64,000 nucleotides of DNA from Nitrospirota bacterium. Its GTDB lineage: Bacteria > Nitrospirota > UBA9217. The notes below the pieces were generated by a model. It was not told the origin of the DNA. It searched no databases and was given only the letters and a program-made list of their open reading frames with translations. The position numbers and the translations under genes were made by a program. Positions within the stretch are counted from its first letter, which is position 1. The number at the start of each line of letters is the position of its first letter. Below, in pieces: positions 4,966-49,634 of the stretch. The stretch covers positions 7,680 through 71,679 of the forward strand of contig CAWGYL010000007.1 of NCBI GenBank assembly GCA_963826885.1, written 5' to 3'.

Positions 4966-5024
4966 TCGACGATAGTATTCTTATTATTCCGAAGGTTTGC
5001 GATGAGATGAGGGAAGGGGTAAAA

Positions 5025-5100
5025 TGGTGGCGGTGCAGGGACTCGAACCCCGGACACAGGGATTATGATTCCCCTGCTCTACCAGCTGAGCTACACCGCC
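5025..5100 (-). tRNA. tRNA with CAU anticodon (elongator Met or Ile2/lysidine type), 76 nt with encoded CCA
   Basis: Reverse complement is GGCGGTGTAGCTCAGCTGGTAGAGCAGGGGAATCATAATCCCTGTGTCCGGGGTTCGAGTCCCTGCACCGCCACCA. It has a 7-bp acceptor stem, a D arm, an anticodon loop AUCAUAA (anticodon CAT), a T arm GGTTCGAGTCC and discriminator A73. 1:72 is G:C, so it is not an initiator. Confidence 0.85.
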
Positions 5101-5194
5101 CCGAAAATTTAGAGGCAACGATACTGTATTGCCGCCTTTTTGTCAAGAGAAACGTGGCAAGGTTCAGGGCCGGGTTTGAAAGCCGCCGGTCTTC

Positions 5195-5818
5195 CTACTC
5201 CTTGAACCGTGTTTCCTCTTTCTGTATCCGCTCTATTTCCTCTTTCTTCGTCTTGCAGCTGATGCAGTATCGCGCCAGAGGATTGACCTGAAGCCGCTTT
5301 ATATCGATCTCTTCGCCACATTCCTCACAGAGGCCGTAGGTATTGTTCTGGAGCTTTCGGAAAGCGTCGGCAATGTCCTTGTACTGTTCATATTTCATTT
5401 CCAGGAGAGAAGAATCGATTCCCTGATCTATATCGAGTGCAGACTGGTCGGCGCTGTCCATGGCGGAATCTATTTTTTGGCCGGTTTCGCGCGTAAGCCG
5501 GCGGCCCATCTGCGCTTCCAGTCCATCCACAACCTCGTTTCGCTTTTTCAGTAGGAGCTTTTTCAGGAGTTCATGGCGCTTCTGCACAGCCGGTGACAGT
5601 CTGGCAGTTTTTGGCGCCGCCGGGGAAGAAGGTACGGAACGGGTTTTTTTTACTGCCTGTTTCTTCACCGATATTTTGGCTGTTTTTTTAACTGATGCCT
5701 TTCTCGTCTTGGAGACGGTTTTTTTCACCGCTTTTTTTGCCGCGGGCTTTCTTTTTGCAGCAGTTGTAACCGCTTTTTTCTTCGTTGCGCCTTTTTTTAA
5801 TGCCATATCGTACTCCAC
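5195..5818 (-). CDS. DksA/TraR-family C4 zinc-finger protein with a long Lys/Ala-rich histone-H1-like N-terminal tail
   Basis: C-terminal 'CEECGEEIDIKRLQVNPLARYCISCK' (CxxC-17-CxxC DksA finger). The N-terminal ~90 aa is 'KKGATKKKAVTTAAKRKPAAKKAVKKTVSKTRKASVKKTAK...'. Confidence 0.75.
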   Translation of the reverse strand: MEYDMALKKGATKKKAVTTAAKRKPAAKKAVKKTVSKTRKASVKKTAKISVKKQAVKKTRSVPSSPAAPKTARLSPAVQKRHELLKKLLLKKRNEVVDGLEAQMGRRLTRETGQKIDSAMDSADQSALDIDQGIDSSLLEMKYEQYKDIADAFRKLQNNTYGLCEECGEEIDIKRLQVNPLARYCISCKTKKEEIERIQKEETRFKE

Positions 5819-6068
5819 CTCCTGAAACGCGTTGGCGACTTGGTTCCATATTATAGATATCTATTAAAGCAAATTCAAGACAATTTGTCATTGGCAGAGC
5901 GGAAAATTTGCTCTTTCCCCCGGCGGCCGCCTGCGCGCCAGTCCCCCGGATACACTCCCGCTGCCCGCAAAGGCCGCCGGAATTGCCGCGGATTTGCCTA
6001 AAGAGTGGTTCTCGATCCTGTTTTCTGATAAAATTGAGCAACGGAATAAATCCAACCTCGGGGTACAC

Positions 6069-27822: not shown

Positions 27823-28559
27823 TTTGATCCTCCTAGAGTTTTTAACACACAAAACCTGAGTGTTGCTGGTTGATGTCGACGCCACCTCAATCGACATCCC
27901 GATTTGCTACATTGTGCTGCTATTGCCTCTTTTTCCCATTAACACCCCCTTTCTCCTTAGACAAGGATTCTCGTAACGAAAAAAATTACTGCCCAATCTT
28001 GCTTGAAAACGCTGACGCCTTGATGCGCGCCCGGAGATAATCCATTTCAATCGGAACGATCAAGCCGCCGGGTCCATTAAAATCCCCATGTCTTACCTAG
28101 CCTAAATTGCATTAAACATTCCATTTTTTTATTTCACAACATTAAATTTATGTCACAAAAAGATACGAGAGAAATATGCCTTCATAAACAAATCGTTAAA
28201 CATACTTTGTTACATATAAAAATGTTTTATAATATTATAATTACAATTTGTAACATAATTAAAATTGTGTTTTATATAAAATACGGTAGGTGAAATTACC
28301 AACATTCGGGTATTTGACCGTTTTTAAAATGCATCCCATCAAAACAACCCCTTTCATATGGAATTAAAGGCTGTAAATGCATGGCAGCTGAATTGTGCGT
28401 TTTACCAGTTTTATTAAGGCAGGCTTAGGGGAAAAATCAGGCGTGCTGCATGGAACGATTGCGGGACGAACTGGGAAAGTGGGTAGTTAGGGAAAATTTA
28501 TTAAATACGGAGAAAATCGTCTTTCACAACGAAGTTCAAGGAGGCAGAGGGACGTTATG

Positions 28560-28950
28560 CGAGATCAAGACGGCTATCGGTAAGGGGATTGAACCGGATG
28601 AGCAAAGAAGATAGGGCATTTTATCTTTAAGGACTTAGCGACAAAATATCTTGAATGGATAAAAGGCAGTCAAGCGTCGACAGAGGTCAAGGGATATATC
28701 ATACGCATGCTTGAAGGATCGGGAAATCCTGCTATCAGGCGACAGCGAAAATGTGGAAGCTGTCGAGCTCGTGCCACGTGCCGCTAAGAGTTAACATGCA
28801 CCTTGTCGAACAGTTACAGACAGATCTAAAGCGGAAGGGCTTGAGCCCCGAGAGCAAAACCACCTGAAAGAGACAAGCTCAAACAAAATCTTGAGCACTT
28901 TGAAGCAGCTGTTTTCGAAAAGCTATGAATGAGATATGAATATGGTTGAA
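28560..28950 (+). pseudogene. integrase N-terminal (SAM-like domain) remnant with stops
   Basis: 'FKDLATKYLEWIKGSQASTEVKGYIIRMLE...' then '...LKRKGLSPESKT...'. Interrupted by stop codons. Lies immediately tRNA-proximal to repeat B. Confidence 0.45.
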
Positions 28951-29000
28951 CAGTCCAAATGAAAAAGGGTTGACTATTGAACGTCAACCCGTTGAAAACT

Positions 29001-29045
29001 TGGTGGAGCTGAGGGGGATCGAACCCCTGACCCCACGACTGCCAG
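29001..29045 (-). repeat. direct repeat B: 45-nt copy of the tRNA-Ala 3' end (1 mismatch)
   Basis: 'TGGTGGAGCTGAGGGGGATCGAACCCCTGACCCCACGACTGCCAG'. Preceded by hairpin GGGTTGAC...GTCAACCC. Confidence 0.75.
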
Positions 29046-29531
29046 TCGGTCTTGGGGGTTTTTATTGCTGTAGTGTTTCGTGATAACTGGTTGTCTTTAA
29101 TCGGTTCACGTATGAAGAGTAGGGTAGCATATGGTCACTGACAATTTCTGTTTATGACTCTCTACTATATAAAAAACAAAAACTATACATTCGCATATTC
29201 CGGAGGATATCTGCCGAGTATTTCAAAACGATTTCATGATCTCGAACTTAGCTTCCGGCAGGACAGACTATAATCAGTAGTTTACTGTTAGACAACATCT
29301 ATGGCATAAATCCATTTACTCTCGCGTGAGAAAAAAACGCTCGTGACTAACCATCTTGTCCTCTTCTGCGTTTTGCGATTATGGCTCCTACTAGGAACAC
29401 GCTGATTCGCCTTCCATTCGTTGAATTCCAAGGTGTTATGCAGAATCGCTGAGGGTGATAGCTCGGCTTGACAAATTAATAAAATTAAGCTATTATTTTA
29501 TTAACATAATAATTGGGTTAGCACAAAATAA

Positions 29532-29903
29532 ATGGAAACAAAAAAAATTCTTATAACCGACGACAACAAAGATATTCGGGACGCCCTCGCCTATATCCTT
29601 GAAAAGGAAGGCTATAAACTATGGATGGCTAAAGACGGTGCCGAGGCTTTGCGAAAAGTGAAAAACGAACGTCCTGATATTGTCTTTCTCGATATCGTGA
29701 TGCCTGAAGTGAATGGCTATGACGTGTGCCGCATCATAAAAAAAGACCCTGTGCTCAAAAAAACATATGTCATCATGCTGACCGCCCAAGACCAGGTGGC
29801 GGAACAGGAACGCGGCAAGGAAGTAGGCGCGGACGAATATATCGTCAAGCCGTTCAGCCCCATGGAAATCCTTGCCATAATTAAAAGACTTGAGACTGCG
29901 TAA
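29532..29903 (+). CDS. orphan single-domain response regulator (CheY-like receiver)
   Basis: 123 aa. 'ILITDDNKDIRDAL', 'DIVFLDIVMPEVNG', 'VIMLTA', 'GADEYIVKPF'. AT-rich upstream region. Confidence 0.8.
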   Translation: METKKILITDDNKDIRDALAYILEKEGYKLWMAKDGAEALRKVKNERPDIVFLDIVMPEVNGYDVCRIIKKDPVLKKTYVIMLTAQDQVAEQERGKEVGADEYIVKPFSPMEILAIIKRLETA

Positions 29904-29957
29904 TCTCAGCAGTCGATCTCCCAACGAATAGCTGATTGAATTCCAGATAAACGCCTT

Positions 29958-30530
29958 TTCAGGAAACCATTTCGAGCATTAGGAAGGTCAAGCAGTTCAA
30001 AGAGGATAAGCGGCTCCGGTACCTGCATATCGAGGAAGCTCAGGGATTAGTTAGCGTTTGAGATAACCATTTGAAACCCATTGTAATAACTGCGCTGAAT
30101 ACGGGAATGAGAAAGGCGGAAATTCTGAAATTACGATGGGACTAGGTTGATCTTCATCACGGGTTTATCCTACTTGATAAAACCTGAACGGAAGCGGCGT
30201 GAGCTCCCTGTCAATGAAAGCTGAAAAAAGTCTTTCACTCCCTTAGCCGTCGGATCGGCGTAGCCTATGTTTTCTATGTTTAGAAAACATTGAAACCATA
30301 TCAGGTGTGAAGCGCAGCTTTGTAACAGCCCTGGACCGCGTCAAGATTGCGGACTTTTATCCCCATGATTTGCGGCATACGTTCGCTTCGCATCTTATAA
30401 TGGCCGGATTTGATCTGGTGGCCGTAAAAGAATTGCTCGGACACAAAGATATTAAGATGACACTCCGTTACACTCATCTCGTTCCCGGCACACAAGAGGA
30501 AGGCTGTCAATGTCCTCGACGCCCCTGAAC
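29958..30530 (+). pseudogene. tyrosine recombinase remnant (C-terminal half, stops and frameshifts)
   Basis: 'RYLHIEEAQGL', 'VITALNTGMRKAEILKLRWD*VDLHHGFILLDKT' with stops. Then in-frame '[42 protein letters not shown]' carries the catalytic HxxR...Y. Homologous to the 25694 remnant. Confidence 0.6.
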
Positions 30531-30625
30531 CCATCTCAAAACTCCATACCTACTATCAACTGCAAAATACTATACAAAAAATTGAAAAGGAGTTAGCCGA
30601 TGTTAGCTAACCCCTTGATAACTCT

Positions 30626-30670
30626 TGGTGGAGCTGAGGGGGATCGAACCCCTGACCCCAAGACTGCCAG
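30626..30670 (-). repeat. direct repeat C: exact 45-nt copy of the tRNA-Ala 3' end
   Basis: 'TGGTGGAGCTGAGGGGGATCGAACCCCTGACCCCAAGACTGCCAG' is identical to 34900-34944. Confidence 0.75.
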
Positions 30671-31276
30671 AGAAGGCTGATAAATAAGGCTTTTTTGCCT
30701 ATTTTTGTCTTTTCAAGGACATGCTTCCCAAAAACGGTAGATGTAGAGAACGCCAACGGCATTAAATGAACATCTTTGAACCCCTCTACTAACACACCAA
30801 CTGACACAGCTACTTTATTGTAAAAATGAAAGGACGATTCAAGGCCCTTGGGGCAACCACGGGCCATTTCTTTTTCCGATTCAGGCCGGCCGGAAGTACA
30901 TACTTCAATTGGTAAATCAGTATTGTATCGAAGGGGAAAATTCTGTCAGCTACACCTACATACTATAACGCTCCTGTCAAGAAGAAGATTTAATTTATTT
31001 TTATTCAACAGGATAACTTGATCAATATATTAAAAACGCACCTCTCTCTTTCGGCATTTACGCCGTTATCACTTTTATCGACGAGTCTCTCGCAACCAGA
31101 CGAACGACATCTCTAATAGTTATGTTACCTATGCGGCGTGCCGTATGGCCGCCAAGAATACCTTATCCAGATTCTATCGTTCAAACGAGAGGCCCTGTAT
31201 TGTAGGTGACGAGGTCAACTGCCCTCAACTATCATAAGCCCGGGCTCTCCCGTCGAAATAAATTTTGCGTACACCA

Positions 31277-32584
31277 TTATGCGGCTGCTTTTTGTTCTAC
31301 GCGCTTTTCCAGTTTAAGGTATTTTGGGTCGAAGCACTCCTTTTTTTTCATCAGTGTCCAAGCAATAATCAAGAGCTTCGCGGCGAGCTTCACCCTCATT
31401 TTAGTACCAATCCCTTTTTCCTTCGCCCGTCCAGCAAGCTTATTCGTAAAATAGGGAATAAAGTCCTTGCTCTTAATCGAGGCAATGAACGCTGCCTGGT
31501 ATAACGCGCACCTCAGATCCGACTTGCCCTGTTTGGAGATGGTCGGCGTTGCCCTGTTTGACGTTTTTCCGCTTCTCTGTGCGCAAAGATCAAAACCCGC
31601 CAACCGCAAAACCTGTTTGCCGCTTGTAAAGCGGTGGGGATCGCCGATGGCTCCGAGGACCTTGGCGGAAACATCCGGCCCAAACCCAGGAATGCTCAAG
31701 AGGTACGTATACTCCGGAAACTCAAGACAGGCATTCTCAAGCTTGTCTTCAACCGCTTTGATCTCCTGCCTAACCTGTTTCAAACTGTCTACTGCAATCT
31801 GAGCTTCATGGAAGGCAGCCTCTCCCATGGTGCAGCCAACGGAATTGACCGCGGTCCTCCAAATCGCTCCCACCCTGCGTTCCCGAGCCAACGTCATTTT
31901 GCCTGGTGCTACGGTACGGCAGAAATCATCGTATTCCATGCCGGCGATAGCGGAAGGATCCAGACATTCCCGCACTACCGCCAGGGTCTCTGACGATCCA
32001 TAGTACGTATCCAACTCAGGGAAATACTGTGCAAGAATATGATTGCGAATATACGCGCTTATGCCGTGTTCCCGCTTCTTCAGTCGCCTCTTGAGTGCGT
32101 TTAGTACGCGCACGTTTTGAAGCGTCATCAAGGGATATTCATAAAACATACATTTTCCCTGGGCAATGAGATCAGCAATATTGGCCGAATCCTTGTCATC
32201 GTTTTTATCCCATCGACCGTTCAGAAGCTGCCGGTTGTTCTTTACTGCCATGCCGCCAACAAGAACGACCATCAGACCGCATTTGATCAGATGCTCCGCC
32301 AGGGGCTTGTGGTAGTCTGCCGTCGGCTCGATCCCGAAAACGACTTTCGGCAGACTGTATTGAATCTTGACGCGCTCCACATACGCATCCAGCTTTTCGA
32401 ATCCCTCGATTGTGTTGTCAATGACCACATTCTTTAAAAGCGTCTTGCCTTGCGCAGTACCAAAAAAAGCACGGTGCTTCTCTTTCGCCACATCAATCCC
32501 AATGATCAAATACTCTTCCGAACCACGAATTTCTTTCTTCAGTAACCGAAATTGCTCAAGTCTGATATCATCGATATAGTTCAT
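31277..32584 (-). mobile_element. IS110-family insertion sequence transposase (intact 435-aa ORF); IS ends not determined
   Basis: N-terminal DEDD/RuvC-like 'LIIGIDVAKEKH'. C-terminal 'IPGFGPDVSAKVLGAIGDPHRF...GKQVLRLAGFDLCAQRSGK' is typical of the IS110 family. Confidence 0.85.
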
Positions 32585-33083
32585 AGAAGCCTCCTGTCTC
32601 TTGAATTTAGTTCACCTATAAACTAATTCTTAGCAGGAGGTTTCTATTTTGGGTAGATTGAAAGTGCAATATCCCTTATGATTAAATGGGAAAGATTAAC
32701 CTCATGCTCTACCCATATATAACTATCCCGCAATTTCAAGAAATGGAAACAGTCATCGACTTCATCTTGAAGTCTGCAAAAGTTTCATTTTATCGAGTGT
32801 CAGTTTCAGCAGTAAATGCGACCAGGATTGCATTACGTCCCTGCACGCGGACCCTGTTATTATCAACCCTCAGTTATTCCACAAGAATCTTTAAACTTCT
32901 ATTTGACACGAAAACTGAATAAGTTTAAAATATTAGCTCACCATTGCAATGTATTTTCAGGCCCCCGTGGTACTATTACGGGGGCAGGTCACAAATACCA
33001 CGGGCTTTAGCTCGTGAGCAATTCATTTTACAAAGACCCCTATTTTTATTATATATTTTTCGCATCGCTTAATAACATGGTTA

Positions 33084-34160
33084 ATGCAGAAATCAATGAG
33101 ATTATCAGACTTTTCTAACGGACGGGATAATAATTTCAATCTTATTCGTATCGTTGCGGCCCTCGCTGTATTGGTGACCCACAGTTTCGCGTTGGCGTTA
33201 GGGACGGGGGATGCTGAGCCCTTTCGAAAAAGTCTTGGCATGTCCCTGGGAGATATGGCACTTGATGCGTTCTTTATCACAAGTGGTTTTCTGGTCACGG
33301 CCAGCTTGCTGAAGAAACAACGTATTACCGAATACTTTTGGGCAAGAGCGCTAAGAATATTCCCCGCCCTTTTACTGATGCTGTTGCTAACCGTTTTTCT
33401 GCTGGGCATATGCTTTACAACATGTTCAGTGTCAACCTACTTATCATCAGCCGAGACCTACATTTATTTTGCAAAATGCTTAACCCTCATCACAGGCGTG
33501 GCTTACAACTTGCCGGGGGTATTCGATAGCAACCCATTAAATAACATGGTTAATGGCTCGCTTTGGACGCTGCCCATCGAAGTAATAATGTACATAGTTT
33601 TGGCTCTTGGATGGTTTGCGTTGCAAAAAGTGCCAAAATTGCGGTCAACCGCATTTAAAATAGCTATCGTCTACTTTACTTTCGTGGCTGGAATTCACAT
33701 GCTTGTTCGTCACTTCTTTTTTCCTACTCCAAGCCTCTTTGAAAGACTTTCCTTCATGTTCTTTGCTGGTGCCACTTTTTACATCCTTAGAGCGCGCATT
33801 ATACTCATTCGGTGGCTGTTCTGGTTCTTTGTAATCAGCCTCTCGTTAGCAACAGTGAATAAGCATGTGTTCTTCGTAATCTACGTGTTTACCATTGCCT
33901 ACATTTTGCTTTATATTGCATACATTCCATCCGGACTGGTCCGAAAATACAACCAGTTGGGTGACTACTCATATGGTATTTATATCTATGCTTGGCCCGT
34001 ACAGCAATCGATTGCAGCTTTGATTCCGGGAGTCTCTGTTTCCCGCATGATAGTAATTTCTACTGTCGTGACCATCTCTTTGGCTGCCCTTTCATGGCAC
34101 TTTTTGGAGCAACGAGTCCTCAGCCTTAAAGCACTTTACATTCGCCAAACTAATAGTTAA
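33084..34160 (+). CDS. acyltransferase family 3 (OafA/YrhL-like) integral membrane O-acyltransferase
   Basis: 358 aa. 'NNFNLIRIVAALAVLVTHSF'. Multiple TM helices, 'DYSYGIYIYAWPVQQ'. Confidence 0.8.
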   Translation: MQKSMRLSDFSNGRDNNFNLIRIVAALAVLVTHSFALALGTGDAEPFRKSLGMSLGDMALDAFFITSGFLVTASLLKKQRITEYFWARALRIFPALLLMLLLTVFLLGICFTTCSVSTYLSSAETYIYFAKCLTLITGVAYNLPGVFDSNPLNNMVNGSLWTLPIEVIMYIVLALGWFALQKVPKLRSTAFKIAIVYFTFVAGIHMLVRHFFFPTPSLFERLSFMFFAGATFYILRARIILIRWLFWFFVISLSLATVNKHVFFVIYVFTIAYILLYIAYIPSGLVRKYNQLGDYSYGIYIYAWPVQQSIAALIPGVSVSRMIVISTVVTISLAALSWHFLEQRVLSLKALYIRQTNS

Positions 34161-39444: not shown

Positions 39445-41661
39445 ATGTCCGACCAACAGGACAATATAAAGGCTCCCGCGCCGCCTTCTCTGCAGATCGA
39501 AAAGGAAATCCCCCTTGACACACGCCTGTTGTCCGAAGCCGTAATTGAGCTGAACATCTCGCGAAAGAATGTGGGGATTTATCCTCCCGGCCATATTCAG
39601 ATCACGAAAAGTATTGACCGGGCCTACGAGATTCTTCAAAAGCTGCTTGAAATCCGCGTTGAAATGACTTTTGGCGTTGCCAAGGACACACTCCTCGTGG
39701 GTCAGGACTACCTCGATCGGAAAAATCCCGTATACCGCGATTTTGCGCTCGCCTTGAACCAGCAGTCAATTGCATCGGTTACCTTTATCCGCGGCCTGGA
39801 AAAGAATGAACTTGTAGAATTTCACCGAATCATTACGACGAAGCCCGAGGACATCGTAGCCGCCGGTGGGATCAGCAAAGTCATGGGTGAGTCAGGCATT
39901 TCCCATGTCAGGATTCAGGCCATCGACTACGGGAGCTTCTATATAACGGAAGAGCAGGAAATATTCAAGTCGCAGGGCAAGGGAGGTCCGGGTGCCGGTA
40001 TTGGTACTGGTACTGGTACTGGTACTGGTACTGGTACTGGTATCGGTACCAATACCGGCACCGGCGAGACGGGCGCCAAACCCAAAGGCGGCCACGATCT
40101 GTGGCAGGAGTTCGTCACGCACCTTACGGCAGGCAGGCTTGCCACATCAGGGGAGGGTGTATCTTTAAAGGAAACGGAGCAAATCGACCCCGCCGAACTT
40201 GCGCGACTTCTGAACGAGCTCAGGCTCGATTCCAACGTTGCACTCCAGAGTTATGACCAGATCATTTCCGAGCATTTGCGCGTGGCGGCCGAGAAGAAGC
40301 AGCTTTCGCAGGAGCAGTCGAAAACCCTGTCGAACCTCAATATGCTGTTGAAAGATCTGCATCCCGAACTCCGTAAACAGTTTCTTTCCGTCGCCTTCCG
40401 ACGCATCTCCACCCATACGAAAGCTATGGGTGCGGAAGACCTTTTGGGCGGTTTTCCCGATGATATCGTGATTGACATGTTGAACCAGGCAAGCGCCGAA
40501 GGGAAGGAAATATCACCGACCCTGACAGGACTGCTTGGCAAGCTGACGCGGGCGCAAGCCCAGAGCGTGCAGTCTTCACCACTCGGCGAACGAGGAAAGG
40601 AGGGAGCGGGGGAGAAGGACCTCGCATCCTCTATTCTGCCTGAGCACATGGAAAAACTATTTGACCGCGAAAAATATGAGGAATATGTATCCGACGATTA
40701 CCAGGCAACACTCAAACGTTTGTCGGAAGCCTCTGGCGTCTTGGCTGAACGGATCCCCGTGGACGAATATGCGAAAACCCTCGAAGAGGATCATCTCGAT
40801 TTCCAGATAGGCCGGGCGCTCATTGCCTTTATGGAAGAAAATATTGATGAGGAGGATTACCGTGAATTTGGGCGCAAACTGGTCACGCTTGTACCCGAGT
40901 TTCTGAAAACCGGCAATTTTGTCCTTCTACTCGACATTCTTGAGACGATTCGCAAACAGGTGAGGGAAAAACCGACGGAGAACCTCCGAGCCATGGCGGC
41001 CGACTGTTTGAAAATATTCAGCGATCCATCGTTCATGGACCAGTCACGCCAGGCATTTGACGGATGGGCGAGTACAAAGGGACGGGAAGCCTCAAACTTC
41101 CTCTATGCGCTCGGACCGGCAATGATCCCCGGGCTGATGGATCTCTACGCAATCGACACAACGCCGGGCGGCCGGCGGGTCCTCTTCGATCTCCTCTGCC
41201 GGTTCGGACAGGATGCAGTGCGCGAAGCCATCAGGCGTTTGAGCGATCCCCGCATCCATTACGTACGAAACTTGGTGATGCTGATCCGTTGGGCCGGGAC
41301 GCCTGCTGCTATTTCGTCCATAAAATTCCTGCTGAATAAACAGAATGTAAAGGTGAGGATTGAAGTCCTGACGACACTGCTCAAGTTTAAAGATCCCGAG
41401 GCGCCGCAGCTTCTCCGTGAAACTATTCATTCTCAGGACCCTGATGTGGCTTCGCAGGCAGTATTTCTCGCTGGCCAGTTCCGCGTGACTGAGGCTGTGG
41501 ACGATCTTCTTTCCCTCATCAAGCGGATCATTTTCTTTGAAGCGGATTATACGGTGAATGAGGAAATCATAAAGGCGCTCGGTGAAATTGGAGATCCGCG
41601 GGCCATCGGCGACCTTGAAAGGCTTGCTCGCGCGCGGACTCTCATCCTCGGCGCCGGTTGA
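39445..41661 (+). CDS. large HEAT-repeat protein with an N-terminal domain homologous to the N-terminus of the adjacent HD-GYP protein and an internal (Gly-Thr)n linker
   Basis: 738 aa. N-terminal 'AVIELNISRKNVGIYPPGHIQITKSIDRAYEILQKLL...LLVGQDYL...VTFIRGLEKNELVEFHRII'. C-terminal HEAT/PBS-type repeats ('IKALGEIGDPRAIGDLERLA'). Confidence 0.6.
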   Translation: MSDQQDNIKAPAPPSLQIEKEIPLDTRLLSEAVIELNISRKNVGIYPPGHIQITKSIDRAYEILQKLLEIRVEMTFGVAKDTLLVGQDYLDRKNPVYRDFALALNQQSIASVTFIRGLEKNELVEFHRIITTKPEDIVAAGGISKVMGESGISHVRIQAIDYGSFYITEEQEIFKSQGKGGPGAGIGTGTGTGTGTGTGIGTNTGTGETGAKPKGGHDLWQEFVTHLTAGRLATSGEGVSLKETEQIDPAELARLLNELRLDSNVALQSYDQIISEHLRVAAEKKQLSQEQSKTLSNLNMLLKDLHPELRKQFLSVAFRRISTHTKAMGAEDLLGGFPDDIVIDMLNQASAEGKEISPTLTGLLGKLTRAQAQSVQSSPLGERGKEGAGEKDLASSILPEHMEKLFDREKYEEYVSDDYQATLKRLSEASGVLAERIPVDEYAKTLEEDHLDFQIGRALIAFMEENIDEEDYREFGRKLVTLVPEFLKTGNFVLLLDILETIRKQVREKPTENLRAMAADCLKIFSDPSFMDQSRQAFDGWASTKGREASNFLYALGPAMIPGLMDLYAIDTTPGGRRVLFDLLCRFGQDAVREAIRRLSDPRIHYVRNLVMLIRWAGTPAAISSIKFLLNKQNVKVRIEVLTTLLKFKDPEAPQLLRETIHSQDPDVASQAVFLAGQFRVTEAVDDLLSLIKRIIFFEADYTVNEEIIKALGEIGDPRAIGDLERLARARTLILGAG
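40003..40050 (+). repeat. in-frame hexanucleotide tandem repeat (GGTACT)x6 plus degenerate units encoding (Gly-Thr)n
   Basis: ggtactggtactggtactggtactggtactggtact ggtatc ggtacc. Flanked by further degenerate GGT-NNN units (39991-40062). Confidence 0.85.
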
Positions 41662-41822
41662 AAATGCAGCAGCAGCTTTTTGCATCCCTGGGCAGATATC
41701 CCGTCGAGAGCATAACAGGGCTCCTCCAGACAGGAGAGCGGTCCGGAGATGAAACCATCAGAAAGAGATGTAAAAAACTGATGGAGCGTAACAATCCGGA
41801 GCAAGAGCAGTCTTGACATCCT

Positions 41823-41848
41823 CCCCGGCCTGAAGGCCGGGGTTTTAC
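41823..41848 (+). terminator. rho-independent terminator after the HEAT-repeat gene
   Basis: CCCCGGCC-TGAAG-GCCGGGG followed by TTTTA. Confidence 0.55.
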
Positions 41849-41874
41849 GGTGCGGATGATAAAAGGTATATGTA

Positions 41875-43047
41875 ATGGTTGAACTCTATACGCAGAGCGA
41901 CTTGGTTGAGGTGATCTCTCAACTCACCGCCGCTGTGAAGAATACAACGCTCTATTCTCCAACCCATCCACAGGTGGCCCAGTACCTCGACAAGGCCTAT
42001 GATCTTCTCCAGGGGCTTCTGAAGAGCAAATCGGATATTACCCTTCTGCTCATTGGCGACGATCTGGTTGCGGACAACCGCTCTCTTCAGGCGGGAAGCG
42101 CTTACGTGATCAACTTTACGCGGATCTTGCGAACAAAAGCAGTTGAAAGGATTTCCTTTTTTCAAGGGGTTCAGAAAGAGGAGTTACAGGAGCTGATCAG
42201 GGATATGGCCTCGATGGAGGCCGCTTCGGTGCGTTCGAGCCAGTGCATCAAACTTGGCAAAGTCGAACTGAGGGTCGTCGCTGATACCGGCGCGGGAAGC
42301 GGTAGCAACACTGGCACAGCTGAAGAAGGTCTGCAGGAACTGCAGGCCCTCACGACAGCGGAAATCGATGAGCTTAAAGAAACCTATCTTGCGATTAAGA
42401 AACACCGGAAGATAGATGTTCGCGGCGTCGACGACATGGTAAAAGGATTCATCAAGGGATTCAGACAGGAAGTAAATCCGTTGAGTCTTCTGGCGACGTT
42501 GAAATCCGTCCACGAATATACCTTTACTCACGTAACGAATGTCTGCATCCTGACCATGGCGCAGGCGGAAAGCCTGGGCTTCAGCGGTGCGCATCTCCAT
42601 AGTATTGGGATCGCCTCGCTCCTCCATGACGTGGGCAAAATCTTTGTGCCAGTGGAAATCCTGTCTAAGCCCGGGGTACTTACGGCTGAGGAACGCAAAA
42701 TAATCGAGACGCATACGGTCAAGGGAGCCCGGTACTTGATGGGCATCGATGATATCCCGAAGCTGGCAATTCTGGCGGCCCTGGAGCACCATCGGAAGTT
42801 TGATGGCAGCGGGTATCCGACGATAAAAGGTGGGTGGACCCCGAATGTCACGAGCCAGATGATCTCCATTGCCGATGTATTCGATGCGATGAGAAGTAGC
42901 CGCACCTACCAGGGATCGATCCCGATCGAACGGATAGTAGATGTTCTTCGCAAGGGAAGCGGTATCTCGTTCAACCCGCAATTTGTCGATCACTTCCTGC
43001 GGCTCATTCGCTATAAGCCGCCGCAGCAGACAGGTCAAAGTTCATAA
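41875..43047 (+). CDS. HD-GYP domain c-di-GMP phosphodiesterase with N-terminal domain paralogous to that of the upstream gene
   Basis: 'LLHDVGKIFVP', 'HHRKFDGSGYP' (HD-GYP signature). N-terminal 'VISQLTAAVKNTTLYSPTHPQVAQYLDKAYDLLQGLL...LLIGDDLV...ISFFQGVQKEELQELIRDM'. Confidence 0.85.
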   Translation: MVELYTQSDLVEVISQLTAAVKNTTLYSPTHPQVAQYLDKAYDLLQGLLKSKSDITLLLIGDDLVADNRSLQAGSAYVINFTRILRTKAVERISFFQGVQKEELQELIRDMASMEAASVRSSQCIKLGKVELRVVADTGAGSGSNTGTAEEGLQELQALTTAEIDELKETYLAIKKHRKIDVRGVDDMVKGFIKGFRQEVNPLSLLATLKSVHEYTFTHVTNVCILTMAQAESLGFSGAHLHSIGIASLLHDVGKIFVPVEILSKPGVLTAEERKIIETHTVKGARYLMGIDDIPKLAILAALEHHRKFDGSGYPTIKGGWTPNVTSQMISIADVFDAMRSSRTYQGSIPIERIVDVLRKGSGISFNPQFVDHFLRLIRYKPPQQTGQSS

Positions 43048-43180: not shown

Positions 43181-44554
43181 TCACCACGCATAAACGATTT
43201 CCGCTTCCGCCTGATCGTTCCGTGAATACCTGCCGAAGACCGATTGCGCCGGACCGTTCAGGGTTATTGCCGTCACTCCGGCTTTCCAGGAATCGTTGAA
43301 GACGTATCCGGCTTTCACCGTCGTCATGTTGTCCCCGTGCTCGGGGTTATAGGCAACGTTCAGGTTTGTCTCGATTTTCTGGTTCATCCAGGTGATTTTG
43401 ACATTCGACCAGAGGAGGGTCTCAACCTTCCTCTCATACAGTAAGTCTACATTGCCGATAATGACGGTCTGCTGGGCCTGCACGGTCAGCATGGCGTCTT
43501 CGAACAACCGGTAATCCAGACCGATGCCGTAGTCCAAAGTGTCGTGTTCTTGCTCGATGGGATTCAACGGGTATGTGCCCGGTGCGAGTATGTTGGGATA
43601 CCCCCATAATTCCTGCCTGATATTGAGGTAGCGGTTGATCGCATATGCCCCTTCAGCCCTGATACTCAGGTCGCCAGTGACCGCGGCGGCATCCATGCCG
43701 ATGACGCTTATTTTGTGAAAGTCGGGCATATATCCCGGGTCGATAACGATTGTTCCTCCGCTCGGCACAATCGTAAGCACTGTTGTTTTGAACACCGGGT
43801 GCGGGTCATAACCATGGAACAGGTTTATCGTCCATTCTATGTCGCCCAAGTGTTTGACTCGGACGCCGACGTTGCTGTTGTTGATTTCCCGGCCGGGCAA
43901 GTCGGGTTCTTGAGGAACGATCACGGCGTTCGGGACTGCCTGGATGATTGTCGAAGCAAGTGATGATCCGTACCAGCGTTCATCTGGCATGGGCAAGCGG
44001 TAGGGAACGAGCACGGGTACCCAGACGGCTTCGGTAATCCAGTCTCCCCTGCTCAGTGTTGCGGAGAGCGAGGGAACGCCGATCTTCCGGTCTTCAAGCG
44101 GCTTTCTGAGGAAGCGGGTATAGTCCCAGGGATTTAAAAGGTCATTGGGAGGGAACTCGTCGAGCCTTCCCCAGGCAAAACGCTGGATTCCGGCCCGAAC
44201 GTCGAGATTGTCTGATGAATGGGTGATGTACAGTTCTTTGAACTCGACGTAAGGTGAGTTGCTCTGGTAGACTTCGTCGAAATTTTTTATGAGCGAATGA
44301 TCACGCGGTGGTAATTTTACGGTTCCATCCCATCCTCCCTCCAGCCAGGAGTGGAAGCGCCATGCTGAACCGTTCGCGTCGAGTTTCACCTGCCCGGCAA
44401 GGTCCGGATCTTCCTTGACGCTGTCGCTCTCCTGCCGCTCCACGCCGCGTGCGGTCAGGCTACCTGTGAAGGAGAGGGAATCATCGCCATGCGCAGGGGA
44501 AGTGCTGGAAAGAAGGAAGCAGATGAAAACGAAGGATATCCGCCGCTTGAACAA
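43181..44554 (-). CDS. putative outer-membrane beta-barrel protein (signal peptide, C-terminal aromatic residue)
   Basis: Signal peptide 'MFKRRISFVFICFLLSSTSPAHG'. Alternating beta-strand-like pattern. Ends '...AEIVYAW'. Last gene of the ABC exporter operon. Confidence 0.45.
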   Translation of the reverse strand: MFKRRISFVFICFLLSSTSPAHGDDSLSFTGSLTARGVERQESDSVKEDPDLAGQVKLDANGSAWRFHSWLEGGWDGTVKLPPRDHSLIKNFDEVYQSNSPYVEFKELYITHSSDNLDVRAGIQRFAWGRLDEFPPNDLLNPWDYTRFLRKPLEDRKIGVPSLSATLSRGDWITEAVWVPVLVPYRLPMPDERWYGSSLASTIIQAVPNAVIVPQEPDLPGREINNSNVGVRVKHLGDIEWTINLFHGYDPHPVFKTTVLTIVPSGGTIVIDPGYMPDFHKISVIGMDAAAVTGDLSIRAEGAYAINRYLNIRQELWGYPNILAPGTYPLNPIEQEHDTLDYGIGLDYRLFEDAMLTVQAQQTVIIGNVDLLYERKVETLLWSNVKITWMNQKIETNLNVAYNPEHGDNMTTVKAGYVFNDSWKAGVTAITLNGPAQSVFGRYSRNDQAEAEIVYAW

Positions 44555-44587
44555 GTGAGGCCCCCTTCATTCCAAATGCAGCGCTAA

Positions 44588-45262
44588 TCAGTATTTTCTG
44601 ACGATAGCCTCGATTAACGATTTGACGGTCGGATCGACATCGGTGAACCTGATCCCGTAATGAAAGACATCGGGGACCTTTACCCGCGGGACGGCGCGTG
44701 CGATTTCACCATAGCCGCTTGCATGCGTTCCATCGGGGAGAAAGAAGGAGAAGAAGATTTCGTCGCCTACGGCAAGCGGTTCTTCAGCCTTGATGAGCAT
44801 GCCGCTTGCACTGATATCTTTCGTCCAGAACGGTAGCGGCCTGTCTTTGAACCGCCCTTGAATCGCGACGGCAAGCGCGGCCCGATAGGCCATTCTCGGC
44901 GCGACATGAAGGAATTGTTGGGCCTTGATGTGGATCAGGGTGGGGTCAACGGGCATGGGAAAAACCGCGTTGGCGCTGCACTGCCTGGATCGCTCCCGGT
45001 GGGCGAGAGTGTCTCTGCAGACAATGATGGTTGAGACCCGCTTCAATGCCTGGCTTTCCCTGATGGCGCTGAAGAGCTCTTCGCTCCGGATGCCGGGCAT
45101 GTCGAGCTGTGTGATGATGAGGTCAGCTTTGTGCTCCCGGTGGATTTTCAACACCTCGTCGTTCGTTGTCGCAGTGAGTACGATAATGTCCCTGCGATCA
45201 AGGAACGTCTTCTTCTCTGCAAAAAGATATTTCAGATCCTCCGCAATCACGATGTAATTCAT
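44588..45262 (-). CDS. response-regulator receiver + PilZ domain protein
   Basis: REC 'HKADLIITQLDMPGIRSEELF'. PilZ 'RMAYR' (RxxxR) and 'DISASG' (DxSxxG). Confidence 0.7.
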   Translation of the reverse strand: MNYIVIAEDLKYLFAEKKTFLDRRDIIVLTATTNDEVLKIHREHKADLIITQLDMPGIRSEELFSAIRESQALKRVSTIIVCRDTLAHRERSRQCSANAVFPMPVDPTLIHIKAQQFLHVAPRMAYRAALAVAIQGRFKDRPLPFWTKDISASGMLIKAEEPLAVGDEIFFSFFLPDGTHASGYGEIARAVPRVKVPDVFHYGIRFTDVDPTVKSLIEAIVRKY

Positions 45263-45411
45263 CCGTCTGCCTCGCCCTTTCTGTTAAACGGGGGAAGTGT
45301 AAGATCCTGGTGAAACAGCACCGCCGTATCCGCTCATAATCAGAGCCTGTATGAACAATACTAATACCAAGAATAGCATACCATAATAATAAATAATTTC
45401 ATCAAAAAAAA

Positions 45412-46233
45412 CTACCTTCCCGCCCGCTCCAGCGAACGCTGCGTGAAAAGATCATCGCTGAAATGGGTATGGTACTGGATGTTACCGATGGTCAGTTCCG
45501 TCCGATGACCGGTCCTTTTGTTCTCCATGTCGATCCGGAAGGGCGTGGGAATAGCGTCGATGACTCTCACGTCCTGGAAAACGCCGGAGCGGTAGATGTC
45601 ATTGTCCTGGTAATACTCAATCTTGAGATGAATCCACCAGTCTTTCGCCACCCAGGCGATGTATTTCGTATATTTCCGGCGGATTTTTGGCGTTACTTCT
45701 ATAACGTAGCAGGGTTTGCCGTCGATGACTTCCTCTTTTTCGATACTGAATTTGTAGTCGTCCAGATTCGGCGGGCCGCCGAAGTCGTCATAAGAAAAAT
45801 CCGATCCGAAAAACGAGTCGTCCTGGGAGCTTGTGGCGATGCGGCGGACGCGCTTGTATTCGGGGAAGTAGGCCCAGAGATCGCGCTCCGCGAAGGTATG
45901 CGCGTGAATGAGGAACCCGACGTTTTTCAAATCCGGAGGTGAATTGAAAATAACGAGCACCTTGTATGCTTCGGGGTCGGCCTTCTTGCTGTATTCGGTG
46001 AGCGTCCTCATCCGTTTACCCCCGCCTTTGTCAAAAAGGACCATCGTCGCTTCGGTCTTCCGATCGAGGGATTTGGAGCGCACTTCATGTACCTTTTCGT
46101 ACACCTCGCGGCCGGAGAGGGCTAAGGATGATGAGACAGAGGAAAAAAGACAGAAGATGGAGCACAGCGCGCAGACAAAGAAGTGAGACCCTATTCTGAA
46201 CTTTAAACGTTGAACGAGAAACTCGTTATTCAT
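45412..46233 (-). CDS. LolA-like outer-membrane lipoprotein-sorting-family protein
   Basis: Signal peptide 'FFVCALCSIFCLFSSVSSSLA'. LolA-like fold region 'MVLFDKGGGKRMRTLTEYSKK...WAYFPEYKRVRRI'. Start overlaps the permease stop by 8 nt. The ORF call extends to 46347. Confidence 0.55.
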   Translation of the reverse strand: MNNEFLVQRLKFRIGSHFFVCALCSIFCLFSSVSSSLALSGREVYEKVHEVRSKSLDRKTEATMVLFDKGGGKRMRTLTEYSKKADPEAYKVLVIFNSPPDLKNVGFLIHAHTFAERDLWAYFPEYKRVRRIATSSQDDSFFGSDFSYDDFGGPPNLDDYKFSIEKEEVIDGKPCYVIEVTPKIRRKYTKYIAWVAKDWWIHLKIEYYQDNDIYRSGVFQDVRVIDAIPTPFRIDMENKRTGHRTELTIGNIQYHTHFSDDLFTQRSLERAGR

Positions 46234-48820
46234 AGGAAAGTGCCTCCACGATGTTGGTCTTTGCCGCTCTTCGTGCGGGGTAGACGCCGGCCAGGGCCGC
46301 GAGCAGCGTCGAAAGAGCCAGTGCCCAGAAAAGGGAAGAATAGTCAACGTGGTATTGCATGCTCGCGCCGTAGTCGCCGCGGAGAAAGCCCTCGAGACTC
46401 ATCCAGCCGATTGCTATGCCGGCGCAGATGCCGAGGGCTCCGCCGATCAGGCCGAGGAGCATGGATTCGAAAACAACTACGCGCGAAACCTGGCTCCGCA
46501 GCATGCCGATGGAGCGGAGGATGCCAATCTCCCGCGTGCGCTCGAGCACCGACGCAAGCAACGTGACCACAATGCCGAGGCAGGCAATCAGGAGGGTAAT
46601 AAGGTTGACGGCGTTGTTCACGGAAAATCCACGGTCGATGACTTTTCGAATTTCATCCTTGAACTCGCGGGCCGGGAGCACGAACAGTTTTCGGTCGTTG
46701 CCGAATCGTCTTGCGATTTCGTCCCGGACTGTTTCGACATTGGCGGTTGGCTTGATTTTTACGGAGAAGGAATCAGCGAGGTACTCCTTCCAATACCGGC
46801 GATAGGTGTGAACGTCCATGAGGATCGATCCGGAGTCGGAACTGTAGTCGACGTTGATGACGGCAACCCTGAAGTTCACCAAGCCTTCCGGCGTTGGCAA
46901 TGTCAGCGTATCTCCCGGTTTGAGATGTTCCTGGGCGGCGAGCGCTTCGTTCACCGCAATATAATCCTGATTCGGCAACAGCCGCGCCATGTCTTCTCGT
47001 GTCCCCCGTGCTATCTTGAAGGGGCTATAGGTGAGCCGCCGCGTGATGTCGAGCGTGAGGAGAAGGATGCGCCTCCCGTGATAATCGATGTATATCTTCC
47101 GGAATGGATCAGCGGACAGGACGCCGGGGACATTCTCGACATCTTTCCACATCTCTGAGGGCATCGGGATATTCTGCGAACCTGTAGTAGCGATGGGGTG
47201 GCCGGACGTTATGATGATGTCCCCCCGCACGTAGGAGTCAATCCAATCCATGACTGAACGTTTGGTGCTGTGAATGATTCCCGCGGAACTGACAAACACA
47301 GAGATGCCATAGAAGATGGCGGCCGCCGCCACCGCGTTTCGCGTGATATTCTTTGCGAGGTTCAGTCCCGCGAGTCTCCCCGCCGCGCCCAGATGAGGCG
47401 CGATGATCCTTCGAAAGACGGCAAGAAACCCCTGCAGAACCGACGGCATGGCAAGGGACATGCCGAGGAGCAGCGAAATGGAGGCCGCAAACATGGTCGC
47501 TGTGGTATGGAAAAGCGCCGACTCGCCGGAAAGTTGAAAGAACGCCAGGAGTATGATCGACAGTGACATGAGCGACACTGAAGCGATCTTCAGCCTTCTT
47601 CCGGAAAGAAATCCTTCTTCCGAATAGGGAACGGAGCGAATGGCCGAAATCGGCGTAATGCGCGTGCTCGTCAGCGCCGGGAAGAGCGCGGCGGCAAGGC
47701 TTGCGGCGATGCCGGCCAGAAAACCGCGTGCAAGATCGGTCCACGACACCACTATGCCGCTGACCGATGTTCTGACATACAGCTCCGATACTGACTGGCC
47801 CACCGTCCCGAGCGCCGACCGGGCAAAGAAGATGCCGACGAACAGGCCCAGTCCGGAGCCGATCACGGACATAACGAAGGTCTCACTCAGGAAGAGCGCA
47901 ATGATCTGACCACGTGTCGTGCCGAGGGCGCGCAGGATTCCGATCTCTTTTCTTCGCTGGACAACGGATATGGAGACGGCGTTATAAATAAGATACATCC
48001 CCACGAACACGGCGATGAAACTGATAAGGTTGATATTTTTCTGGAAGTGGGAGACGAGGGATTCTATCTGCCTGGTCCTGCCTTCCGGCGTTACCACGTT
48101 GTAGCCTTCCGGGAGTGTTTTCCGGATACGCTCGCGTACGGCATCGAGACCCTCGTTCTTGAGAAGGCTTACATCGATCCGGTCGATCCGGCCTTCTTTG
48201 CCAAATGCCATTTGCGCCGCCGGATAGTCCATGACGGCAATGTTGCCGGACGCAACTTTCGCCGGCCCTTCAGGATTCAGAAGCCCCCGCACTCGGAAGG
48301 TCCTGATGCCGCGCACGGTTTGGACCTGTATCGTCTGGTCGAGTTTGATGCCTTCCCGGTCAGCCAGTTCCCGGGTCAGGAGGATCGAGTCGGGGCGCGC
48401 AAGGAACAGGAGCGGATCTGGTATGTCGGCGTTCTCGTCCGAAAGCTTGTATTCGCGGATATTGCTGTCTTGAAGCACATCGACACCCAGGATCATAAGC
48501 GATTGTTCCTTGGCGCCCACGAGGATTCCCTGGGTGTCGATCACCGGAACGGCGTACTCCACGCCGGGAACGTTCTGCACGCGTTCGATCATGCTCTCGG
48601 GAAAGCCAGACGCGGCTCCGGTAACCTGGAGCACCGCACGTCCTGTCACGCGATTGATCGTGTCTTCGAAAGAACGCAACACGCTCTTGTTCACGATGCC
48701 TATTGAGATAATCGCGGCCACCCCGAGACAGATGCCTGTCACGGTCATGACCGATTGAACCTTCTGGAGCCGGATGCGCCTGATACTGATATGTTTGAGT
48801 AAATTGAGCAGGTTCATCAT
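46226..48820 (-). CDS. ABC transporter permease with two FtsX/MacB-like modules (YbbP/LolE-like)
   Basis: 864 aa. Two repeats of periplasmic domain + 4TM FtsX domain ('EIGILRALGTTRGQI', 'EIGILRSIGMLRSQV'). Confidence 0.8.
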   Translation of the reverse strand: MMNLLNLLKHISIRRIRLQKVQSVMTVTGICLGVAAIISIGIVNKSVLRSFEDTINRVTGRAVLQVTGAASGFPESMIERVQNVPGVEYAVPVIDTQGILVGAKEQSLMILGVDVLQDSNIREYKLSDENADIPDPLLFLARPDSILLTRELADREGIKLDQTIQVQTVRGIRTFRVRGLLNPEGPAKVASGNIAVMDYPAAQMAFGKEGRIDRIDVSLLKNEGLDAVRERIRKTLPEGYNVVTPEGRTRQIESLVSHFQKNINLISFIAVFVGMYLIYNAVSISVVQRRKEIGILRALGTTRGQIIALFLSETFVMSVIGSGLGLFVGIFFARSALGTVGQSVSELYVRTSVSGIVVSWTDLARGFLAGIAASLAAALFPALTSTRITPISAIRSVPYSEEGFLSGRRLKIASVSLMSLSIILLAFFQLSGESALFHTTATMFAASISLLLGMSLAMPSVLQGFLAVFRRIIAPHLGAAGRLAGLNLAKNITRNAVAAAAIFYGISVFVSSAGIIHSTKRSVMDWIDSYVRGDIIITSGHPIATTGSQNIPMPSEMWKDVENVPGVLSADPFRKIYIDYHGRRILLLTLDITRRLTYSPFKIARGTREDMARLLPNQDYIAVNEALAAQEHLKPGDTLTLPTPEGLVNFRVAVINVDYSSDSGSILMDVHTYRRYWKEYLADSFSVKIKPTANVETVRDEIARRFGNDRKLFVLPAREFKDEIRKVIDRGFSVNNAVNLITLLIACLGIVVTLLASVLERTREIGILRSIGMLRSQVSRVVVFESMLLGLIGGALGICAGIAIGWMSLEGFLRGDYGASMQYHVDYSSLFWALALSTLLAALAGVYPARRAAKTNIVEALSYE

Positions 48821-48938
48821 GACCCGAATACTCTTAAAAAACAGAAGACTGGTGTTTGTTTAGCTTCAACGATGCGCTAAATTCGCAAAATTGTCTATCA
48901 TGTAGTCCGCCCTTTTTGTGCCTTTTGCGCAAAAACGG

Positions 48939-49634
48939 TCATATGCATATTGCACTGTCCTCGGCAATGCAGCCGTCTTTGAGTATAATGCTGCGGGTTC
49001 CGAAGGATGCTGCTTTGGGGTCATGGGTCACCATCACGAGGGTCTGTCCCTCCGCATGAAGGCTTTTCAGCAGGTTGAGTATGTCCGTGCTCGTATGCGA
49101 GTCCAGGTTTCCCGTGGGTTCGTCCGCCAGCAGCACGGTGGGGTTGGTGACCAGCGCCCGGGCGATGGCTACACGCTGCATCTCGCCGCCGGAGAGCTGC
49201 TCGGGACGATGATCGGTACGGCCTGAGAGGCCGACCTTCCGCAGCAGGGATTCCGCCGTGGGTTTGACTTTTGAGAAGGGAATGCCTTCGAGCAAGAGAG
49301 GGAGCCCCACGTTTTCCGCGGCGGTGAGGATGGGCAGGAGGTTGAAGAACTGGAAAATGAATCCCACGCGCCTGCGGCGGAGCAGCGTGAGTTCGTCATC
49401 GGAGATGCCGTGGAGCGGCATGTTATCGATGTACACCTCGCCGTGGGTGGGCCGGTCCAGTCCGCCGATGAGGTTCAGGAGTGTGCTTTTGCCCGACCCG
49501 GACGCCCCCATGACGGAGAGAAACTCACCGGCCTTGATGACGAGAGTAATGTCCCGGAGAGCCCGGATCTCTCTCGCACCGTGCAGATAGGTTCTACTTA
49601 CATTTTTCAATTCGATCATTGTTGCCTCATGCAT
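48939..49634 (-). CDS. ABC transporter ATP-binding protein (LolD/MacB-ATPase-like)
   Basis: 'GASGSGKST' Walker A. '[15 protein letters not shown]' signature. '[11 protein letters not shown]' Walker B. Confidence 0.9.

Follow-up and report, generated by a model that had tools for sequence, protein, structure and literature searches.

HD-GYP phosphodiesterases, which hydrolyse cyclic di-GMP (c-di-GMP), are far less understood than the EAL enzymes. In the Bd1817 family (DUF3391-HD-GYP), RpfG (REC-HD-GYP) as well as PmGH (GAF-HD-GYP), an N-terminal domain of ~120-140 amino acids (aa) is followed by a helical linker and a C-terminal HD-GYP domain. The same layout was found for an enzyme encoded in a stretch of 64,000 nucleotides (nt) from a Nitrospirota bacterium (GenBank assembly GCA_963826885.1, contig CAWGYL010000007.1, positions 7,680 to 71,679), which is referred to as the window. 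Its gene is paired with the gene of a HEAT-repeat protein directly upstream. Unlike in Bd1817, RpfG and PmGH, the N-terminal domain, termed N-module in the following, is also carried by this obligately co-encoded, non-catalytic partner. Most HD-GYP proteins have undefined N-termini, and with respect to domains that can be delineated 'there are definitely many more', as Galperin & Chou put it (10.1101/2021.11.05.467447).

The DUF3391 domain of the Bd1817 family is likewise an N-terminal domain of unassigned role, for which a promotion of dimerisation has been suggested in the account by Galperin & Chou (10.1101/2021.11.05.467447). According to the same source it consists of four strands followed by two helices, whereas the N-module begins with two long helices. 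A dedicated partner that regulates c-di-GMP hydrolysis, as is proposed here, is found in HnoD, which inhibits HnoB, and in trigger-enzyme complexes. The HnoD-type partners are degenerate paralogues of the catalytic domain, whereas here the shared element is the N-module and the bulk of the partner is a solenoid. A non-catalytic HEAT solenoid beside a metal-dependent phosphoesterase is also known from PP2A, and PP2A-A was among the structural matches of the solenoid described below. This likeness is a functional analogy only, with homology limited to generic HEAT repeats, and the contact proposed here is between the N-modules and not on the solenoid surface. The PBS-lyase-type HEAT proteins, such as NblB and the parents of alphaRep, share the repeat type (HEAT_PBS, HEAT_2), whereas they are without the N-module and the middle region and are unlinked to HD-GYP genes. 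The HEAT-type protein was also rejected as an NblB by the NCBIfam equivalog model (27.6 bits vs a cut-off of 300). In a literature search, no description of a HEAT/HD-GYP pair was found. No family described so far fits the N-module or the pairing, which suggests, at the level of sequence, an HD-GYP enzyme with an uncatalogued N-terminal domain and a paralogously tagged scaffold partner.

Both proteins begin with a homologous N-module

The two genes are located on the forward strand, the HEAT-type gene first. Their parts are listed below, where the coordinates of the HEAT-type gene refer to the frame restored at a 1-nt deletion.

39445..41816, + strand: HEAT-type gene, encoding N-module, disordered linker, helical middle region and alpha-solenoid; restored product 790 aa
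39508..39924, + strand: HEAT-type N-module, covering aa 22-160 and bearing the motif N42-x3-Y46-x3-H50, from alignments and AlphaFold (predicted local distance difference test, pLDDT, 88; predicted template modelling score, pTM, 0.81)
39931..40089, + strand: disordered, length-variable linker of the HEAT-type protein (aa 163-215), from the Tandem Repeats Finder (TRF) repeat and pLDDT <50
40090..40779, + strand: helical middle region of the HEAT-type protein (aa 216-445), from conservation; pLDDT 50-68; no known family
40792..41813, + strand: HEAT/ARM alpha-solenoid from aa 450 to the C-terminus, with the frameshift-displaced last repeat counted in, from HEAT_2, HEAT_PBS and pLDDT 86-96
41643..41644, + strand: site of the 1-nt deletion in the HEAT-type gene, from DNA alignments with the related loci L001, L003, L087 and L088
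41823..41846, + strand: intergenic GC hairpin with 8-bp stem and TGAA loop, then TTTT, from sequence and predicted fold (-22 kcal/mol)
41875..43047, + strand: HD-GYP-type gene (390 aa), encoding N-module, helical linker and HD-GYP catalytic domain, from the open reading frame (ORF) and HD_5 (E=1e-22)
41875..42279, + strand: N-module of the HD-GYP protein, covering aa 1-135, where the motif reads N23-x3-Y27-x3-H31
42487..43029, + strand: HD-GYP catalytic domain, from alignment with PmGH (4MCW)

Alignment of the two N-termini by BLASTP revealed 29% identity without a gap between aa 29-128 of the HEAT-type and aa 10-109 of the HD-GYP protein (E=9e-13). Homologues were gathered with full-length queries; the HD-type N-terminus alone as query gave 8 fragments. 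More than 320 full-length homologues of 750-810 aa were obtained for the HEAT-type protein, and thousands for the HD-GYP-type protein, the best 120 of which are clear full-length orthologues. Comparison of the two N-terminal family alignments of 121 sequences with hhalign resulted in a probability of 97.6% (E=3.2e-12, 109 columns). The combined alignment stretches the similarity to ~135-140 columns, and the pattern N-x3-Y-x3-H, shared by both types, is invariant in it. Tyr and His were the sole invariant columns across 50 diverse N-module sequences of both types, and Y-x3-H was found in 146 of 148 N-module representatives. Judged by these alignments, the similarity of the N-termini is homology and not chance. 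Identity of the N-modules between the types is 12-32%, compared with 18-85% within types; at the sequence level, the HEAT-type and HD-type N-modules are old paralogues.

The two genes are linked in all loci examined

The linkage was analysed from both sides. From the HEAT side, one genome per GTDB species was scanned with a narrow HEAT-type alignment (A4), which matched 185 genomes. From these, 80 loci were fetched. The narrow alignment biases them towards Nitrospirota: most are Nitrospirota/Thermodesulfovibrionia, largely from uncultured Nitrospirota, and a few are metagenome-assembled genomes (MAGs) labelled Deltaproteobacteria. Wherever 450 nt or more of DNA were available downstream of a HEAT-type gene (74/74), an N-module ORF followed on the same strand, and this ORF bears an HD-GYP domain wherever the sequence reaches far enough. 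A metagenome scan with the HD-type N-module gave 61 HD-type genes for which 700 nt or more of upstream DNA were available; just upstream of each of the 61, a HEAT-type gene ended on the same strand. The same order was observed in all five distant representatives sampled, one of them a Desulfobacteraceae MAG and another a 'Pseudomonadota' MAG, where a HEAT-type protein of 713-817 aa precedes an HD-GYP protein of 363-395 aa (5/5, same strand). The flanking genes of these distant pairs are unrelated, and in 3/5 the two genes overlap by 4-16 nt. Gaps within the pair are of 0-60 nt, and many loci have overlapping genes; the distances cluster at ~51-59 nt in the clade of the window, and those of the Thermodesulfovibrionia clade at -4 to +1 nt.

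Two loci, L008 (3831-11443) and L082 (7926-14703), contain two tandem copies of the complete pair. The HEAT/HD-GYP cassette is duplicated as a unit. Because of the linkage in 74/74, 61/61 and 5/5 cases, the unit duplication and the lack of other generally conserved neighbours, the pair would be explained most simply as a two-gene functional unit, that is an operon encoding interacting products.

These results bear directly on the original prediction, which had been made from the letters of the window. It had proposed that the N-termini of adjacent genes align and that the shared domain is a novel one, not a known generic domain; both proposals held (BLASTP E=9e-13 and hhalign 97.6% for the first, no Pfam or NCBIfam model for the second). 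The different outputs that it had described, an HD-GYP domain in one protein and a Gly-Thr linker with a HEAT solenoid and no catalytic domain in the other, were recovered by Pfam, TRF and the structural model. A profile search for domain co-occurrence had been proposed as a check, and homologues co-localise in all cases counted above. The HEAT protein had been seen as a decoy or partner of the phosphodiesterase. Because the pairing is obligate, the reading as a partner is strengthened; the decoy variant, plausible as such, gained no specific support.

One locus, L014 (CAWDWW010000018.1), is titled 'uncultured beta proteobacterium' and contains a pair 79% identical to that of the Nitrospirota clade of the window. 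This is likely a taxonomic mislabel or a binning problem. The pair genes of L014 are fragmented by frameshifts.

The N-module lies outside existing domain models

Based on an alignment of 18 sequences, AlphaFold2 predicted a compact N-module (pLDDT 88, pTM 0.81). The model starts with two long helices (5-23 and 32-51), and the connecting loop bears the invariant Tyr and His. The helices are followed by a beta-beta-alpha-beta-alpha-alpha-alpha-beta-alpha unit. A STAS-like topology was considered for the beta-beta-alpha-beta-alpha...beta core; Foldseek gave no STAS match.

No Pfam family matched any of 18 N-modules at E<=10, and no NCBIfam model matched. A profile search of PDB sequences found nothing, and the N-module model had no significant Foldseek match in the PDB, nor a match to 4MCW. 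Known N-terminal domains of HD-GYP proteins were considered and rejected. DUF3391 (PF11871) gave no match at E<=10 in the 18 N-modules or at E<=0.01 in 10 distant HD-type proteins; its topology differs from the helix-helix-first order of the N-module, and 3TM8 was not among the Foldseek matches. For REC and GAF there was no Pfam match, and GAF structures appeared in Foldseek only at E>=1.9 with template modelling (TM) scores <=0.2. As modelled, the N-module is an alpha/beta domain family of ~135 aa outside the existing Pfam and NCBIfam models.

A combined N-module profile was searched with HMMER against 1.84 billion cluster representatives. This resulted in 3,398 proteins at E<=1e-3, 846 of them at E<=1e-10. 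Architectures were tabulated for the best 150 of the 3,398 matches. In these the N-module was always N-terminal, and two architectures only were present: a HEAT-type of ~720-790 aa (103 proteins) and an HD-GYP-type of ~380-400 aa (18 proteins). The remaining 29 were short proteins. Standalone N-module proteins were considered and rejected, since the short matches look like fragments or frameshift products.

Architecture of the HEAT-type protein

In the HEAT-type protein of the window, Pfam matched HEAT_2 (E=3e-16; 59.8 bits vs a cut-off of 27.7) and HEAT_PBS (25.8 vs 20.9), both at the C-terminus only. HEAT repeats were matched in 14/14 diverse full-length HEAT-type proteins, and nothing else matched in them. 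The full-length model was confident for the N-module (24-160) and for the solenoid (450-730), with aa 163-215 disordered and aa 216-445 helical at low confidence. The solenoid model had Foldseek matches with a probability of 1.0 to HEAT/ARM proteins, namely alphaRep (best), PP2A-A, importins, SF3B1 and Rpn2. According to the model, the solenoid is a scaffold of a generic kind for binding proteins, and a catalytic domain is absent. The middle region (aa 216-445) contains the nearly invariant motifs ISP and LFDRE-YEEY and had no Pfam model in the 14 diverse members. HEAT-type members at 26-35% identity retain the complete architecture.

The Gly-Thr run in the disordered linker is encoded by a tandem repeat, (GGTACT)x7.7, at 39997-40042 (TRF). 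Among homologues of 88-96% identity the repeat varies in length; it is shorter in P0009 and missing in P0010. Spurious Rfam matches to miRNA families fall on this repeat.

Membership in a defence system was also considered. The pair had no specific match among the PADLOC models, merely partial generic HEAT-ARM and Cas10-HD matches at E ~1e-5, and this was rejected.

The HD-GYP domain has conserved metal ligands and an atypical HHx motif

The second protein matched the Pfam models HD_5 and HD and contains the HD...GYP motifs. Pfam likewise gave HD/HD_5 only when 10 distant HD-type proteins were searched. The catalytic domain was aligned with PmGH (4MCW; reference residues H189, H221-D222, H250, H276-H277 and D305). 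All of these metal ligands are conserved (H219, H251-D252, H280, H305-H306 and D334), and the domain also keeps K255 and G313-Y314-P315. Among 95 HD-type partners, HD.GK and D.[FY]DA were found in 95/95 each and HH...(D/N)G.GYP in 93/95. With the metal ligands and GYP intact, the enzyme is most likely catalytically competent, as predicted from its sequence.

Two positions are of note. The motif in the window is HHRKFDGSGYP, compared with the canonical HHExh(D/N)GxGYP, so that Arg307 is found in place of the Glu (HHR, aa 305-307, 42787-42795). Furthermore, Tyr215 aligns with E185 of PmGH, the third-metal position; the acidic residue of the trinuclear subclass is absent there, and Glu214 adjoins it. 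Tyr at the E185 position marks the binuclear class, of which closely related members with this Tyr were unable to hydrolyse pGpG to GMP, as reported by Galperin & Chou (10.1101/2021.11.05.467447). Because Tyr215 occupies this position, the second protein is classed as an HD-GYP protein, probably of the binuclear type, with an atypical HHx motif; the assignment to this type is not absolute given the neighbouring Glu214.

A frameshift shortens the HEAT-type gene of the window

As annotated, the HEAT-type ORF spans 39445-41661 (+) and encodes 738 aa, shortened by a frameshift. Homologues read through '...ARARTLYPRRRLKMQQ...' or '...ARARTLYPRRRLKMQQLLFASLGRYP...' where the window has '...ARARTLILGAG' and a stop codon. 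The codons for the missing C-terminus lie in the -1 frame and run up to a TGA at 41814-41816. A single T is absent between 41643 and 41644, where the window reads ACTCTC directly followed by ATCC and relatives read ACTCTCTATCC. As a result, the last HEAT repeat (52 codons, 41644-41816) is displaced into the -1 frame. In-frame read-through or selenocysteine at the TGA at 41659 was considered and rejected; the continuation lies in the -1 frame and is explained by the 1-nt deletion. DNA alignments showed the T in four relatives, L001, L003, L087 and L088. Of these, L087 is an independent assembly, and its adjoining HD-type N-module is 99% identical to that of the window. Because the T is kept in these four, the frameshift is private to the window sequence; it arose either through faulty assembly or through a mutation of very recent date. 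Since the restored gene ends at 41816, the intergenic gap is really 58 nt and not 213 nt.

The intergenic hairpin is not conserved

The gap contains the hairpin CCCCGGCC-TGAA-GGCCGGGG-TTTT (41823-41846) with 8 GC pairs (-22 kcal/mol, z=-2.8). Its tail, TTTTACGG, has 4 T only and is below the terminator criterion of a U-run of at least 5 in 8; a terminator scan did not call the hairpin. It is present in the three closest sequences only, with one broken pair in L087 and two in L001, none of them compensated. L003 (91%) and L088 (92%) are without the hairpin segment and have gaps of ~15-17 nt. Judged from these comparisons, the hairpin appears to be a lineage-specific insert and at most a local attenuator. 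No promoter-like site was found in the 58-nt gap. Known RNA elements, such as a c-di-GMP riboswitch, were searched with Rfam in the leader and the gap and rejected; no family reached the gathering score, and all matches were far below it. The original prediction had taken the hairpin for a strong terminator and the genes for independently transcribed modules. With a short gap, an unconserved hairpin and no promoter-like site, the architecture is rather operon-like, and that part of the prediction is not supported.

Evolutionary rates and neighbouring genes

The HEAT-type N-module is the slowest-evolving part of its protein, with a mean distance of 0.54 compared with 0.56 for the HD-GYP catalytic domain. 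For the HD-type N-module and the HEAT solenoid, the rate is about double that of the HEAT-type N-module. Co-evolution was analysed by mirror-tree in 95 pairs, with partial correlations computed controlling for the other domains. The largest cross-protein term was that between the two N-modules (0.36); the others were -0.02, 0.13 and 0.29. This lends weak support to an assembly of the two proteins.

Hydrogenase genes were found near the pair in ~9/26 close-clade loci and in 0/13 distant-clade loci. The divergent hydrogenase operon noted in the original prediction is real in the window, and its link to the pair is a local one. On the other side, a convergent cluster (43181-49634, -) encodes ABC ATPase, MacB/FtsX permease, LolA-like/DUF1329, REC-PilZ and DUF1302 proteins. 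REC-PilZ is a domain type found in c-di-GMP receptors. The REC-PilZ gene is near the pair in 4 loci only and is nearly unique to this genome. DUF1302 was found near the pair in 15/26 close-clade and 0/13 distant-clade loci, and about half of the close relatives have DUF1302 and LolA-like genes together with the pair. Functional links of the pair to the hydrogenase operon or the REC-PilZ/MacB/LolA-like/DUF1302 cluster were considered and rejected, as these neighbours are conserved in part of the closest clade only.

Other genes of c-di-GMP and signal transduction were observed beside single pairs. On the contig of P0393 (ENA ERZ1426829), a gene for a multi-PAS GGDEF diguanylate cyclase (4272-6020) overlaps the start of the HEAT-type gene (6001-8220) by 20 nt, and a three-gene operon of cyclase, scaffold and phosphodiesterase is possible in this lineage, judged by gene order. 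In L002, genes for a PAS histidine kinase and a REC-HD-GYP protein are located just upstream of the pair. Further away in the window, a stretch at ~28000-34000 beside the hydrogenase cluster has a low GC content (0.41-0.47 vs ~0.53 elsewhere) and holds an IS110-family transposase gene (31280-32584, -) and an acyltransferase_3 gene (33084-34160, +). This stretch is probably a mobile or horizontally acquired segment.

Discussion

We favour, by a modest degree of confidence, the interpretation that the pair is an operon for a scaffold or regulatory subunit and a catalytically competent HD-GYP phosphodiesterase, which would associate through their paralogous N-modules. The two genes would be co-transcribed and, in many lineages, translationally coupled. 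In the resulting hetero-oligomer the paralogous N-modules would touch each other, a pseudo-symmetric arrangement that takes the place of an N-domain homodimer. Contact may be made at the Tyr/His loop, or the loop may be a site for a shared ligand or metal. The HEAT solenoid would act as a regulatory or targeting subunit that sets the activity or the location of the phosphodiesterase. By analogy, this logic would be like that of the PP2A A-subunit, which holds the catalytic subunit, and the outcome would be local degradation of c-di-GMP. It is conceivable, though we hold it only tentatively, that the N-module is a new fold or family that assembles an as yet undescribed two-subunit c-di-GMP phosphodiesterase, in which the Tyr-x3-His loop would be the common sensing site, for instance of a metal or redox signal.

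Several points weigh against an interacting pair of scaffold and active enzyme. Physical contact of the two proteins is inferred from architecture and synteny only, and phylogeny confounds the mirror-tree signal, which is weak. In all 95 HD-type partners, L, Q, R, M, I or K is found in place of the canonical Glu of HHE. Beyond the inspected best 150 there are about 3,250 weaker profile matches, and further N-module architectures may exist among them. Two points concern the window itself. Its HEAT copy is frameshifted with the last repeat lost, and a real deletion may mean an impaired partner in this strain; the stable hairpin between the genes could reduce read-through locally.

The best surviving alternative, which we nevertheless regard as rather unlikely, is that the N-modules do not touch. 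Each would bind the same ligand, metal or redox signal at its Asn/Tyr/His loop, and one signal would steer c-di-GMP hydrolysis and, separately, a scaffold-mediated process, with co-expression merely coordinating the two. The loop itself speaks for this, as a sole invariant Tyr and His between two long helices is a pattern more typical of a ligand or metal site than of a large interface. N-terminal domains of HD-GYP proteins are also usually sensory, as far as described by Galperin & Chou (10.1101/2021.11.05.467447), and the twofold rate of the HD-type N-module relative to the HEAT-type one is unexpected for a mutually constrained interface. However, strict 1:1 adjacency, frequent overlap of the genes and duplication as a unit are more typical of subunits of a complex, the strongest cross-protein co-variation is that between the two N-modules, and Foldseek recognised no ligand-binding fold for the N-module.

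If the N-modules do associate, the HEAT protein could also be an antagonist whose N-module forms inactive heterodimers and titrates the HD-GYP protein away from active homodimers. Shared modules of a dimerisation type can give such poisoned heterodimers, obligate pairing is documented here, and non-catalytic members of the HD-GYP family that inhibit other phosphodiesterases exist, such as HnoD, which is named by Galperin & Chou (10.1101/2021.11.05.467447). We nevertheless consider a decoy improbable. The ~600 further conserved residues of the middle region and solenoid would be superfluous for a pure decoy, and a coupled, stoichiometric co-production of an enzyme and its constitutive inhibitor makes little sense without further input. 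Nothing in the data separates inhibition from activation or targeting. That the genes are independently transcribed modules, parted by a functional intrinsic terminator and without necessary functional coupling, is highly improbable: the perfect 8-bp GC stem with TTTT between the genes of the window argues for it, but it has four T only, was not called by the scan, is missing in relatives of 91-92% identity and bears uncompensated mutations in its two other bearers; the gap contains no promoter-like site, and the genes of other lineages adjoin directly or share 1-16 nt, with universal linkage.

With respect to HD-GYP proteins in general, the scaffold-enzyme pair adds one delineated N-terminal domain, for which an invariant motif and a structural model of high confidence are given. 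The same N-module is duplicated onto a large non-catalytic scaffold, and the genes of scaffold and enzyme are linked without exception in all loci examined, in lineages down to 20-30% identity. The HEAT-type protein is thus a concrete candidate for an accessory subunit dedicated to an HD-GYP enzyme. If the proposed association is true, it would constitute a c-di-GMP signalling complex of a new, locally acting class, which is widespread in Nitrospirota/Thermodesulfovibrionia and present as well in some MAGs labelled Desulfobacteraceae or Deltaproteobacteria, and may offer a route to local c-di-GMP signalling in these poorly studied, mostly uncultured anaerobes.

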